In this document: one piece after another, positions 2,833 to 21,850 of the stretch
How positions within the stretch are numbered: the stretch's first letter is position 1
Layout of the letters: each line of letters opens with the position of its first letter
Source: an uncultured Candidatus Saccharibacteria bacterium
GTDB taxonomy: Bacteria; Patescibacteriota; CALEFQ01
Assembly (NCBI GenBank): GCA_965230955.1
Contig: OZ246404.1
Span: forward strand, 648,410 to 683,425
Reading direction: 5' to 3'
Length of the DNA stretch: 35,016 bases
The notes under the pieces: model-generated
What the model was told of the DNA's origin: nothing
The model's input: the letters and a program-made list of their open reading frames with translations, nothing else
Database searches by the model: none
Made by a program: the position numbers and the translations under genes

Positions 2833-3653
2833 TTTTGGCAATTACGGCAATAAAACGTATCCCTTCCTTGTAATTTGGTTTCGTTTATTATTTTACCACA
2901 TCGCGGGCATGGCTGTCCCACCTTCCGGTACACTTTCATAAAAACGCGCTTTTCATCTTCTTTGACGGCTACCCCGACAGTTTTCTTGATATTTTCGATG
3001 CCCCAAGGAATGATTCGCTTAATTGACTGATACAGAGCGGCGATCTCATCTGCCCCCAATTTCTTGGCTTCACGCGCCGGATCAATCATGGCCGCAAATA
3101 AAACCTCGTCGGTATAAGCATTACCCAGTCCGGCGATAAACTCCTGTTTCATCAGCAAGGGCTTGATCCGACCACGGCTTTTTTGAATATACTTTGCGAA
3201 CCATTCTTCGGTAAAGTCGAGACTTAAAGGTTCAACTCCAAGTTTGTCGAGGTGCCCGTTACTGCCCAGCCAAAATTTGGCCCAGAAAGTATGATCAGTC
3301 AGACGCAGCTCTTGGTCACTATCAAATTCCAGCGCCAACATGACTGTACCCGGCCGCCTCGTCTGGCTCGGCTGGCGGGCGAGCCCCGGCCGAGAACTTC
3401 CAGCCGACTCAACCGTCAGGCGCCCATTGAGCATTAGATGTAAAACTAATTCCGCCTTGATATTGGCTTCGTCTCTCCCGAAAGCGAAAATAAGAAATTT
3501 CCCCCTGCGCGTGACCCCAGCCAGTTTTTGATTTTTAAGTTTTGCCGCCAGATTATCCTTGCCTTGACGCGCATAAACATCAGAGACGGTTTTTCCGCCG
3601 AAATGGCGCCAAATATTCTCTTTGAGAACCTCGAGATCAGGGAGTTCAGGCAT
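2829..3653 (-). CDS. mutM: Fpg/Nei family DNA glycosylase (MutM-like)
   Basis: N-terminal PELPD, RRGKFL, H2TH GLGNAYTDE, C-terminal C4 zinc finger CPRC...CRNC. Confidence 0.9.
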   Translation of the reverse strand: MPELPDLEVLKENIWRHFGGKTVSDVYARQGKDNLAAKLKNQKLAGVTRRGKFLIFAFGRDEANIKAELVLHLMLNGRLTVESAGSSRPGLARQPSQTRRPGTVMLALEFDSDQELRLTDHTFWAKFWLGSNGHLDKLGVEPLSLDFTEEWFAKYIQKSRGRIKPLLMKQEFIAGLGNAYTDEVLFAAMIDPAREAKKLGADEIAALYQSIKRIIPWGIENIKKTVGVAVKEDEKRVFMKVYRKVGQPCPRCGKIINETKLQGRDTFYCRNCQK

Positions 3654-16257: not shown

Positions 16258-16331
16258 TTCTTACATCTTACATCTTAAATCTTATCTCTTATTTCTTAAC
16301 ATCTTAATACTCTTAATATCTTACTTCTTAC
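16258..16331. repeat. Degenerate 7-mer tandem tract (NTCTTAN), about 10 units
   Basis: ttcttac atcttac atcttaa atcttat ctcttat ttcttaa ...; contains the xseA stop codon. Confidence 0.85.
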
Positions 16332-17451
16332 TCTTCCCCTTCACCTCGGTGAATAATCCCCCTTCCGCCAATCTTATTTTCAGCAACTCACCAACTTTTA
16401 CTTGACCGGCTCGACTCACCACTCGATCTTTCCGATAAACGAGACTGTAACCGCGAGAAAGCACCGCCTCCGGACTCAGAGCGACAATTTTATGATAAAG
16501 CAGATCCTGCGACTGCGAGCACTCGCGGATAAAACGAGCAAATCCCGATTGTACCTGCTCCCAAACCTGCTTGATTTCTGCCGGCAGTTCTTTCCAGTGA
16601 TTTTTTACTTGAGTCAGCTTAAAAGCAAATTCATCCAATTGCCGCGCTAATTCATCGCGATGAGGGACGATTTCCTCCGCCGCATTAGATGGAGTGGACG
16701 ACCTGTGGTCAGCCACCAGATCGGCTATAGTCACGTCTTTCTCGTGACCGACGGCGGAAAGAACCGGAAGGGACGAGGCCACAATCGCCCGCGCCACGCG
16801 TTCGTCATTAAATCCCCAAAGATCTTCCAACGAACCGCCGCCCCTGGTCAGAACAATCAAGTCCACCTCATTTTCAGAATTGAATGCTTGCAGAGCCGCA
16901 ACAATTTGGCCGGGCGACTTGTCCCCTTGGACTAAAACATCCCGTAAAACAAGTTCCACGCCGCCGAAACGGTGAGACAATACTTTCTTGAAATCTTTCC
17001 AAGCCGCGCCGTCTTTGGAAGAAATGACGCCGATTCGTGCGGGAAAAGCCGGCAGCGGTTTTTTGCGCTCGTCAGCAAATAGCCCTTCGGCCTGTAATTT
17101 TTGCTTAAGCTTTTCTAGTTGCTGCTGGAGCGAACCTTGCCCGACGGTTTCTATCGTCTGTACTTTGAGCTGGTAATCGCCCCGCTTGGCATACAAGCTG
17201 ACCTGGCCAAAAACCACGATGGCCTGGCCGTCCGTCATCTCAACCGGCATTTTTTTTAGAACATCATCACGCACAATGCAGCGAATCTGGGCGGATTCAT
17301 CTTTGAGGGTAAAATAGTTATAAACCCAAGACCGTGACTGCTTAAACTCGGAAACTTCCCCGCTCACCCAGACCCAAAACTGCTCGAGCACCGCTCGCGC
17401 CTGGTCATTCAATTGAGATACCGTCAGAACTGACTTCTCGTCTTTGATCAT
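16321..17451 (-). CDS. xseA: Exodeoxyribonuclease VII large subunit (short C-terminal helical region)
   Basis: WVSGEVS, YFTLKD OB fold; GLF..ERK, RGGGSLEDLWGFN, SAVGHEKD.TIAD.VAD.R..TPS, LSRGYS. Confidence 0.96.
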   Translation of the reverse strand: MIKDEKSVLTVSQLNDQARAVLEQFWVWVSGEVSEFKQSRSWVYNYFTLKDESAQIRCIVRDDVLKKMPVEMTDGQAIVVFGQVSLYAKRGDYQLKVQTIETVGQGSLQQQLEKLKQKLQAEGLFADERKKPLPAFPARIGVISSKDGAAWKDFKKVLSHRFGGVELVLRDVLVQGDKSPGQIVAALQAFNSENEVDLIVLTRGGGSLEDLWGFNDERVARAIVASSLPVLSAVGHEKDVTIADLVADHRSSTPSNAAEEIVPHRDELARQLDEFAFKLTQVKNHWKELPAEIKQVWEQVQSGFARFIRECSQSQDLLYHKIVALSPEAVLSRGYSLVYRKDRVVSRAGQVKVGELLKIRLAEGGLFTEVKGKSKK

Positions 17452-17461
17452 TATCAAAGAG

Positions 17462-17986
17462 TTATTTGCCGATAGAATCAGACATCAAGGTAAAAGCCAC
17501 CTTTTCCCCGAATTCTTCCGCCGCGTCAGCGCCGTTAGCAGTAATAATTTTTCCCTGAGTCTCAATGCTCACGCCGGTAAACTTAGCGCCGGCTTTTTCC
17601 AGAGCGGATTTCTCGGACGAAAAAGCGGTAGCGCGAATGCCTTTTAGCAAACCGGCTTTCGCCAAAATCGTCGGCGCGATACAAATGGCGGCCACGACCT
17701 TATCCGCCGCGGCGGCTTCCTTCGCCAATTTGAGCGCCTCGGAATCTTTGAAGTAATCAGACGCACCGTCCCCGCCAATAAACACAATCCCGTCAAACTC
17801 ATCAAGCTTGACGTCCGCAAGCGCGAAATCAGGATCCACTTTCCCGCCATCCACTCCTTTGGCCGGATCTTTAGTTTTGGAAGCGGTGCTGACAGTCACA
17901 TCGTTGTCGATTAACGCCGCTTTGGTGTCGAGATACTCTTTGTCTTTGTAGCCATCTTGAGCCACAATCAATAATGCTTTGGGCAT
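17462..17986 (-). CDS. DJ-1/PfpI family protein
   Basis: GYKDKE, FIGGDG, AAICIAP nucleophile elbow, IITANG. Confidence 0.92.
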   Translation of the reverse strand: MPKALLIVAQDGYKDKEYLDTKAALIDNDVTVSTASKTKDPAKGVDGGKVDPDFALADVKLDEFDGIVFIGGDGASDYFKDSEALKLAKEAAAADKVVAAICIAPTILAKAGLLKGIRATAFSSEKSALEKAGAKFTGVSIETQGKIITANGADAAEEFGEKVAFTLMSDSIGK

Positions 17987-18049
17987 AAACGATAAAAGCT
18001 TTCTGCCGGTCCCGAAGAGAGGCAGAATAATAAAGGATTAACAAGGTCC

Positions 18050-18077: not shown

Positions 18078-18117
18078 TAGTTGGTCTCTTGGGCTAAAGA
18101 CAAAAGACCAAAGACTT

Positions 18118-18144
18118 AAAAAACCTTGCTTCGCAAGGTTTTTT
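18118..18144. terminator. Intrinsic terminator (A6/T6-flanked) downstream of the ncRNA
   Basis: aaaaaa-ccttgc-ttc-gcaagg-tttttt. Confidence 0.85.
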
Positions 18145-18154
18145 AAGCCCGGAC

Positions 18155-18291
18155 AAGCCGGGCCCAGTCCCGCACTAAAGTGTTATACTTGATGCGGCGA
18201 AACTGTTCGTACAGCCGAAGCTGCATACCAGTTCTGCCTCTTTATCAAGCAGTCCCAGATTAGAGGAGACTCAAGCACCGATTGCCCAGGC
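18155..18291 (-). ncRNA. Structured non-coding RNA, 6S RNA-like candidate
   Basis: Rod-like fold by eye: apical cUUCGg hairpin UGCAGC/GCUGUA, AACUG/CAGUU, GGC/GCC, UGCUUGAU/AUCAAGUA, about 14 nt bubble on each side, AGUCUC/GGGACU, closing GCC(U)GGGC/GCCCGGC; own promoter and terminator; no ORF. Confidence 0.55.
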
Positions 18292-18297
18292 GTCAAT

Positions 18298-18326
18298 ATA
18301 GTATCAGTTTACTATGTTTTTGTCAA
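18298..18326 (-). promoter_or_regulatory. Near-consensus sigma70 promoter driving the ncRNA
   Basis: TTGACA-N17-TACTAT. Confidence 0.8.
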
Positions 18327-21352: not shown

Positions 21353-21428
21353 TGGAGCCGTTGGCCGGATTTGAACCGGCGACCACCTCCTTACCATGGA
21401 GGTGCTCTACCAACTGAGCTACAACGGC
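21353..21428 (-). tRNA. tRNA-Thr(GGT)
   Basis: 76 nt cloverleaf GCCGTTG/CAACGGC, CCTCC-ATGGTAA-GGAGG, TTCAAAT, encoded CCA. Confidence 0.97.
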
Positions 21429-21453
21429 CCGCCTACGCCAAGGCTTCGGCGGG
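21428..21453. repeat. Hairpin element type A abutting the tRNA-Thr(GGT) 5' end
   Basis: cccgcctacgccaaggcttcggcggg; 24/26 identical to 21623-21648. Confidence 0.85.
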
Positions 21454-21507
21454 CAGGCCCGAAGGTTGACGCAAAACGATTAACTTCAAAATAACTCACG
21501 ACGCTTA

Positions 21508-21547
21508 CTGGCTTGCCAGACGAAGCTCGGCCAAGCCGAGCGTAGTC
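21508..21547. repeat. Hairpin element type B abutting the tRNA-Thr(CGT) 3' CCA
   Basis: 40 nt, 38/40 identical to 21737-21776. Confidence 0.9.
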
Positions 21548-21623
21548 TGGAGCCGAGGGCGGGATTTGAACCCGCGACCTGCGCGTTACGAATGCGCTGC
21601 TCTACCAACTGAGCTACCTCGGC
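21548..21623 (-). tRNA. tRNA-Thr(CGT)
   Basis: 76 nt cloverleaf GCCGAGG/CCTCGGC, loop TTCGTAA, TTCAAAT, encoded CCA; A31-C39 mismatch. Confidence 0.93.
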
Positions 21624-21648
21624 CCGCCTACGCTAAAGCTTCGGCGGG
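21623..21648. repeat. Hairpin element type A abutting the tRNA-Thr(CGT) 5' end
   Basis: cccgcctacgctaaagcttcggcggg. Confidence 0.85.
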
Positions 21649-21736
21649 TAAACTCGCGAAGCACTAGCGCAGAAAGACCAACTGCCCTTCGGCAAATCCA
21701 GCTTGGTGCTGAAATCCAGCCTGAGCTTGCTAACGT

Positions 21737-21776
21737 CTGGCCTGCCAGACGAAGCTCGGCGAAGCCGAGCGTAGTC
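21737..21776. repeat. Hairpin element type B abutting the tRNA-Gly 3' CCA
   Basis: ctggcctgccagacgaagctcggcgaagccgagcgtagtc. Confidence 0.9.
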
Positions 21777-21850
21777 TGGAGCGGGATACCAGAATCGAAC
21801 TGGCGTCTTCGCCTTGGGAAGGCGGTATACTACCACTGTACTAATCCCGC
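21777..21850 (-). tRNA. tRNA-Gly(CCC)
   Basis: 74 nt cloverleaf GCGGGAT/ATCCCGC, loop TTCCCAA, TTCGATT, U73, encoded CCA. Confidence 0.95.

Follow-up and report, generated by a model that had tools for sequence, protein, structure and literature searches.

A small non-coding RNA gene, equipped with its own promoter and intrinsic terminator, marks one subclade of Saccharibacteria, and comparison of its predicted parts among relatives makes it very probable that the gene is genuine and functional. The gene was analyzed in a stretch of 35,016 nucleotides from the genome of an uncultured Candidatus Saccharibacteria bacterium, hereafter the window. It is read from the minus strand, to which all the coordinates of its parts refer, and comprises a promoter, a 146-nt rod and a terminator, for a transcript of about 174 nt. 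The flanking genes of the window all lie on the same strand, a 148-aa hypothetical protein gene upstream, DJ-1/PfpI, and then xseA and xseB, downstream. The RNA is structured and highly constrained, and matches no catalogued family. It may work like 6S RNA, a plausible though unproven name for it.

The promoter was located by a consensus scan, and is of the sigma-70 type, near consensus (TTGACA-17-TGaTACTAT). The -35 hexamer TTGACA resides at 18321–18326, and is followed, after a 17-nt spacer, by an extended -10 (TGaTACTAT, 18298–18306; TACTAT at 18303–18298). The original prediction had reported the two hexamers and their spacing; both were found on the minus strand, and the TG ahead of the second makes it an extended -10. 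The predicted transcription start is the G at 18291, which lies 7 nt past the -10 and is the first base of the closing stem. The RNA body spans 18146–18291, as delimited by minimum free energy (MFE) folds, the consensus fold and the covariance model R1. The terminator, also predicted from the beginning, was recognized by sequence scan at 18150–18112; it consists of a 15-bp A/U-flanked stem, a GAA loop and a run of U residues, and the likely 3' end of the transcript is at about 18118. The scan returned 4 promoter-like matches versus 2.8 expected, and a single match is not significant alone; the feature stands above chance because the whole unit is conserved in 9 other loci.

Nine further distinct copies of the RNA were found in Saccharibacteria/Patescibacteria contigs, along with two variants of the window clade from metagenome contigs. 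Homologs come from loci fetched via relatives of the DJ-1 and XseA proteins, and from one DNA-pattern scan of metagenome contigs, which returned 20 loci, just 3 of them real, and 2 of these duplicates of the L002 copy. A scan of viral contigs gave 2 chance matches, and BLAST searches of phages and plasmids found no homolog. The window clade includes six sequences, from the window, loci L014, L001 and L046, and Logan DNA contigs X6 and X7; the other copies reside in L002, L016, L037, L040, L017 (identical to L018) and L015. The exact window sequence was found in wastewater metagenomes, and the DJ-1 and XseA proteins of the window have close relatives in metagenome-assembled genomes of Candidatus Saccharibacteria or Patescibacteria.

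The -35 and -10 boxes are found at equal offset in all 10 full sequences, the -35 being changed to TTTACA in L015. A TAnnAT hexamer occupies the -10 place in all homologs, preceded by TG in 7 of the 8 compared, and in every homolog a G, corresponding to the first base of the closing stem, is found 7 nt after the -10 (8 nt in L015). Every homolog is also followed by a terminator; stem sequences differ, and still pair (CCUC/GAGG, UCCU/AGGG, UCCC/GGGG). Since promoter boxes, start G and a compensating terminator are all kept across ten sequences, comparative evidence for the predicted transcription unit is strong. The notion of a standalone non-coding RNA unit is thus upheld, as promoter, +1 G, rod and terminator recur in 10 distinct sequences, helices change in compensatory or wobble-only fashion, and the small ORF in the region is not conserved.

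The body of the window RNA (18291–18146) folds with an MFE of -69.6 kcal/mol, and the rod with its terminator with -85.6 kcal/mol (z = -7.0 versus dinucleotide shuffles); the stability of the rod ranges from -56 to -70 kcal/mol. The opposite strand folds 26 kcal/mol worse (-43.6 versus -69.6 kcal/mol), the fold being strand-specific due to many G·U pairs. Model R1 similarly assigns the window RNA 132.8 bits on the minus strand versus 20.1 bits on the plus strand. The original prediction had described a rod of about 137 nt capped by a UUCG loop; rod and cap, C(UUCG)G at 18216–18219, are present, but the body measures 146 nt.

The rod can be viewed as made of successive modules. The 5' strand of the closing stem P1 (nt 1–10, GCCUGGGCAA, 18282–18291) pairs with residues 18147–18156, and P1 features two compensatory pairs (A-U/G-C and C-G/U-A) in addition to wobble-only changes. 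Next to it is a hypervariable segment of the 5' arm (nt 11–41, 31 nt, 18251–18281), and then the apical domain (nt 42–105, 18187–18250), in which P2, an asymmetric loop, P3, an A/C mismatch, P4, an internal loop and P5 lead to the UUCG loop. The 3' arm continues with a conserved segment (nt 106–135, 18157–18186), composed of an A/U-rich stretch and the invariant UGCGGGACUG, and ends with the 3' strand of P1. The consensus fold, obtained with RNAalifold on 9 sequences, reads from the ends inward as P1, a middle of about 33x30 nt to which no pairs are assigned, and the P2 to P5 series just described, ending in a variable loop; the middle holds a small hairpin of the 3' strand, CGGG(ACUGRG)CCCG. 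The closing stem measures just 10–16 bp. The terminator hairpin begins directly after P1 and, as we infer, could stack on it, lengthening this short arm. The sequence of the apical loop differs among homologs (UUCG, UUCU, UUAC, AUUUU), in contrast to the 3' side of the internal loop (AC.AA) and the AAUCUC bulge, which are conserved.

The rod had been thought to be interrupted by a central bubble; a large one is missing from the predicted fold of the window RNA. This fold has small internal loops, measuring up to about 5 nt per strand, and in the window clade the corresponding region is a helix kept by pair-preserving substitutions. The window RNA is accordingly a nearly continuous rod, rather than one with a large bubble.

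Pairing in the consensus structure is supported by covariation. In the 10-sequence alignment, 97.7% of the cells of the 31 consensus pairs hold residues which pair, versus 25–43% when partners are slid by 1–3 columns. Both partners are changed in four pairs, of which P1 holds two, and P2 and P4 one each; the P2 change is a switch from U-A to C-G, found in 4 sequences. Covarying homologs, on which the reality of the RNA had been made to depend, do therefore exist, with compensatory changes in three helices, and a covariance model (R1) could be made. Pairing of the variable 5' segment with the 3' arm is better than in shuffled sequences in the window clade (z from -2.2 to -3.1), L015 (-3.5) and L040 (-2.0), and no better than in shuffles in L002, L016 and L017 (z from -0.4 to -0.9). 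Six variable columns of the 5' arm are well-kept as paired in the window clade, and all changes in them are wobble-compatible transitions. Four other variable columns, drawn as paired in the MFE fold of the window RNA, are unpaired in most relatives, and are thus probably not real pairs. A local hairpin in the variable 5' arm was sought, and does not rise above shuffles except in L017.

The two strands of the rod are conserved to very different degrees. Mean pairwise identity is 0.42 in the variable 5' segment and 0.75 in the 5' strand of P1, reaches 0.83 and 0.93 in the 5' and 3' strands of the apical domain, respectively, and is 0.81 in the 3' arm and 0.92 in the 3' strand of P1. Among the six sequences of the window clade there are about 25 variable columns in the 5' half versus one in the 3' half, and no substitutions in the conserved 3'-arm segment. 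Over the same comparisons, third codon positions of the DJ-1 gene are 46–49% identical, so that synonymous sites are near saturation. Judged from these alignments, strong sequence constraint acts on the entire 3' strand as well as on the apical arm, and the 31-nt segment of the 5' strand varies freely, mostly provided that pairing persists. The 3' strand is rich in G and U residues, which allows its 5' partner to drift by transitions. Pairing by itself, on the other hand, cannot be all that keeps the 3' strand unchanged.

Part of this constraint may reflect a second structure. A 3' hairpin competing with the closing stem had been noticed in the window RNA; its complementary motifs, GCCCGG and CCGGGC, reside at 18163 and 18152, and the hairpin can be formed in every homolog. 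In the window this alternative hairpin, called H-b, corresponds to GCCCGG(CUUGU)CCGGGC at 18147–18163, its 3' strand and loop overlapping the 3' strand of P1 (18147–18156). When the 3' arm is folded in isolation, GCCCGG(N5)CCGGGC forms in all 10 sequences, the arm being arranged as a single-stranded stretch followed by H-b and by the terminator. Changes in the stem of H-b are only C to U, and preserve pairing; the two compensatory pairs of P1 fall in its loop. Alternative folds had also been imagined in which an AGUCUC sequence exploits duplicated motifs. The motifs GGGACU(G) and (U)GCUUGA do occur twice each, but the number of repeats is at chance level: 5 repeated 6-mers were counted in 146 nt, versus 2.3±1.9 in shuffles (P = 0.13). 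The repeats are moreover degenerate in the nearest relatives, L014 and L001. Being at chance level and not kept, they make the folds built on them incidental.

No known RNA family accounts for the sequence. At gathering score, Rfam models matched three tRNAs elsewhere in the window and nothing on the RNA; ARAGORN found the same number of tRNAs elsewhere in the window, and no tmRNA. When the RNAs of the window, L017 and L002 were searched at E<=10, only terminator look-alikes were retrieved, and neither RF00013 nor related 6S models gave a match. The likeness to 6S RNA put forward in the original prediction was hence not borne out by the 6S models; topology and size remain compatible with it, but a consistent large bubble is missing. 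As the covariance-model test failed and the bubble differs by clade, membership in the 6S family is not established. By Rfam 15 covariance models the RNA is likewise not an SRP RNA, a tmRNA, an RNase P RNA, a Y RNA or a known riboswitch, and in setting aside tmRNA, SRP RNA and RNase P RNA the original prediction was right; its proposal of a new class of CPR RNA is fair so far as no Rfam 15 family matches.

Other identities were considered and rejected. No ORF of at least 40 aa overlaps the unit. A 27-codon ORF of the window lacks its ATG in L001, where the codon reads ACG, and the clades are separated by a 2-nt indel which puts the invariant 3' half out of frame; together these two changes show that the RNA is not coding. 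A retron msr-msd was dismissed, as neighbouring genes encode no RT domain in the window or in any locus.

The RNA has a narrow distribution. Model R1 detected one copy and no second one in the 35-kb window, and none in L051, L052 and L039, also with filters off. The RNA is thus missing from the syntenic region of the more distant Saccharibacteria L051 (XseA 58% identical) and L052 (45%; 844-kb genome), and the family was found only where XseA is at least 61% identical to that of the window. In every locus the RNA and the gene directly after it share a strand; this gene is DJ-1 in 6 loci, and PIN_3 in L002, L016 and L040. Upstream neighbours vary among loci, and include genes for the 148-aa hypothetical protein, a Na/Ca exchanger, a Y1 transposase and a NUDIX protein. 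In four metatranscriptome runs the locus of the L001 type was found on flat contigs of low depth, running across the promoter, in which the RNA is covered as deeply as its flanks; such contigs could stem from DNA, or a loss of small RNAs could have occurred. Equal, low coverage of promoter and flanks is evidence neither for nor against a discrete, abundant transcript.

Several features of the neighbourhood deserve mention on their own. A gene for a Y1 transposase of the IS200/IS605 type lies directly upstream of the RNA promoter in a single lineage (L017, 2154–2606; L018, 99–551), and is probably an insertion beside the RNA gene, not part of it. In one clade, a PIN_3 (VapC-like) gene sits between the RNA terminator and DJ-1 (L016, 2250–2657; L040, 3442–3885; L002, approximately 3240–3650); these PIN_3 genes have no obvious protein antitoxin upstream, and L051 has a PIN gene and no RNA. 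DJ-1/PfpI features its own promoter-like site (TTGAAA-16-TATACT, 18077–18050, minus strand) and, about 15 nt before the start codon, a hairpin in the 5'UTR, UUCUGCC(N12)GGCAGAA (18001–18027, minus strand). The hairpin covaries, changing to UACUGCC/GGCAGUA in L014, UUCGCCG/CGGCGAA in L040 and L043 and AUCUGCCU/AGGCGGAAU in L002, is absent in L017 and L015, and may be a small cis-regulatory element. Just past the terminator of the RNA, a 7-nt tandem repeat (AAAGACA, 2.9 copies, 18096–18115), read as GUCUUU(U) on the RNA strand, is not conserved in L001 and L014. Three tRNA genes, Thr(GGT), Thr(CGT) and Gly(CCC), are clustered at 21353–21850 on the minus strand. The block from DJ-1 to xseA (16321–17986 in the window; loci L003–L013 and L052) shows an identity gap beyond this clade. 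DJ-1 identity falls from 68% to at most 54%, the next relatives in species genomes being found in Micrarchaeota, Elusimicrobia and Peribacteria, and XseA identity from 58% to at most 45%. The block may have had an unusual history in this lineage.

Among known systems, 6S RNA (ssrS, RF00013 and lineage-specific 6S models) offers a set of likenesses to be weighed. It is a rod of about 200 nt with a closing stem, an apical stem interrupted by loops and a relatively unstructured centre (PMC8876501). Recognition involves two regions, one "-35-like", located in the apical arm, the other "-10-like", on the 3' side of the central bubble, and synthesis of product RNA off the 5' strand unwinds the downstream helix, upon which the 3' strand refolds (PMC8876501). 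The Saccharibacteria RNA is also rod-shaped, its two ends pairing to form a closing stem and its apical arm being interrupted by internal loops. Its body of 146 nt and transcript of about 174 nt agree with the length expected for 6S RNAs (about 150–200 nt); it has a strong promoter of the housekeeping type, a loosely paired middle in some clades, and a 3' strand predicted to be able to refold into hairpins once the closing helix is opened. Its invariant parts, the 3' strand and the apical arm, match in place the recognition elements of 6S RNA (PMC8876501), and its variable part, the 5' strand, would be the one on the template side. In contrast to 6S RNA, it finds no covariance-model match, its distribution is narrow, a consistent large bubble is missing (the region is closed in the window clade), and the closing stem is limited to 10–16 bp unless the terminator hairpin stacks on it.

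Other systems offer likenesses as well. The Ms1 RNA of Actinobacteria, which binds the core of RNA polymerase, measures about 300 nt and is known only from that group. Ms1 is reported to be structured and 6S-related, to escape the 6S model and to bind RNA polymerase (PMC9130861). The Saccharibacteria RNA is also structured and unmatched by the 6S model; no similarity to Ms1 was detected in sequence or by covariance model. As in SRP RNA (4.5S; RF00169), a tetraloop caps a long hairpin, and after it come two internal loops, one of them roughly symmetric and the other asymmetric, but the tetraloop is a variable UUCG rather than GNAR, the helix-8 motif of the AGCA/GGAA type is missing, the internal loops are wrongly spaced (about 10 bp apart) and the covariance model does not match. 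The RNA also recalls a pre-miRNA, in that one arm is near-invariant, the other kept for pairing only, and the loop variable; the conserved arm, however, measures about 65 nt, not about 22 nt, and weak matches to Rfam miRNA models fall on the terminator only. We know of no pre-miRNA-like processing pathway in bacteria. ToxIN-type loci are arranged in the order RNA, terminator, toxin. The order promoter, RNA, terminator, PIN_3 in three loci resembles that of type III ToxI RNAs, from which the Saccharibacteria RNA differs as it is devoid of tandem repeats and lacks a PIN gene in most loci, and as PIN occurs without the RNA in L051.

How the RNA may function can be discussed in terms of the conservation pattern. 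Tentatively, it may act in trans as a protein-binding decoy, most plausibly as a minimal 6S-type mimic of promoter DNA on RNA polymerase holoenzyme. As such a mimic the RNA would occupy the housekeeping holoenzyme. The invariant 3' strand would be the recognized 'non-template' face and the hypervariable 5' strand the template-side partner, where short product RNAs could arise; upon displacement of the 5' strand, the 3' strand would snap into the GCCCGG/CCGGGC hairpin and the enzyme would be released. The same conservation pattern, with AC.AA and AAUCUC conserved and the apical loop not, would also suit a scaffold or decoy for another RNA-binding protein, that is a new CPR ribonucleoprotein with a mechanism unrelated to 6S, in which protein recognition would rely on the invariant 3' strand and on internal loops of the apical arm. 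This possibility, which agrees with the lack of a match in any Rfam family, is nonetheless somewhat doubtful, as no candidate partner gene recurs consistently beside the RNA, upstream neighbours vary from locus to locus, and the argument is one by exclusion. A lineage-specific antisense sRNA acting in trans is rather unlikely. Here activity would reside in the 3' strand with H-b and terminator, covered by the 5' strand as by an intramolecular lid, and unzipping of the rod, or its cleavage by an RNase specific for double strands (RNase III, for example), would free the A/U-rich stretch and UGCGGGACUG for pairing with target mRNAs. An own promoter, a Rho-independent terminator and a narrow phylogenetic range are typical of bacterial sRNAs, the layout of the isolated 3' arm is that of a classical sRNA, and the extreme one-sided conservation, with a 5' strand kept for pairing only, would be explained. 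The conserved stretch, however, is buried in a very stable rod, and the apical domain, conserved on both strands, is left unexplained. Complementary 9-mers in the 35-kb window are ten versus about 16 expected, none above chance, and an apparent match, CGGCAGAA, shared with the hairpin in the DJ-1 5'UTR, does not co-vary with the RNA across loci.

A role in cis is improbable, be it as leader or attenuator of DJ-1/PfpI or PIN_3, or as an RNA antitoxin, similar to those of type III, against the PIN toxin which follows in some genomes. The downstream gene always lies on the same strand, and the arrangement of RNA, terminator and toxin is reminiscent of ToxIN. A riboswitch or cis-leader was nevertheless rejected, as the downstream gene differs by clade, the terminator is adjacent to the conserved rod rather than interleaved with it, with no mutually exclusive overlap of the two, and DJ-1 is preceded, past the terminator, by a promoter-like site and a covarying 5'UTR hairpin of its own. 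A type III antitoxin was discarded too, as the RNA contains no tandem repeat, PIN follows in 3 of 10 loci, the RNA is kept where PIN is missing, and L051 has PIN without the RNA. It is most improbable that the element is not an RNA at all, but a DNA-level palindrome, a recombination site or a decaying hairpin devoid of function. To such readings one might ascribe the metatranscriptomes, in which no transcript is demonstrated, and the IS200-type transposase adjoining the element in L017 and L018. They are contradicted by the G·U pairs, which make the fold strand-specific, by the promoter and terminator conserved around it, by compensatory changes in the helices, and by the single substitution in the 3' half in the window clade, despite near-saturated synonymous sites in DJ-1. 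It is conceivable, though again unlikely, that the RNA falls outside both 6S RNAs and ordinary antisense sRNAs, and represents a new regulatory class specific to CPR bacteria. It would then be a nicked rod capped at both ends, by the apical and the terminator loop, whose invariant 3' strand would alternate between two forms, the rod and the GCCCGG/CCGGGC hairpin, and whose hypervariable 31-nt 5' segment would set strain-specific behaviour, such as the ease of rod opening, or recognition.

Very few regulators are known from the tiny genomes of Saccharibacteria and other CPR bacteria. Among the open-access papers searched, none connected 6S RNA with Saccharibacteria, TM7 or the candidate phyla radiation, and none dealt with sRNAs in these organisms; "6S RNA" and Patescibacteria appeared together in a single one, on mitochondrial SRP. 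By its predicted features, this is a previously uncatalogued RNA, strongly promoted, structured and highly constrained, which no Rfam model recognizes. The RNA is short enough for direct biochemical tests. Should it prove of the 6S type, it would be the missing minimal version of a near-universal regulator of RNA polymerase, and would show how little RNA the function of 6S needs; otherwise, it would be a lineage-specific RNA with some other partner. Either way a concrete gap in annotation has been exposed, and model R1, or a model rebuilt from alignment A2, can be applied to all genomes of Patescibacteria.
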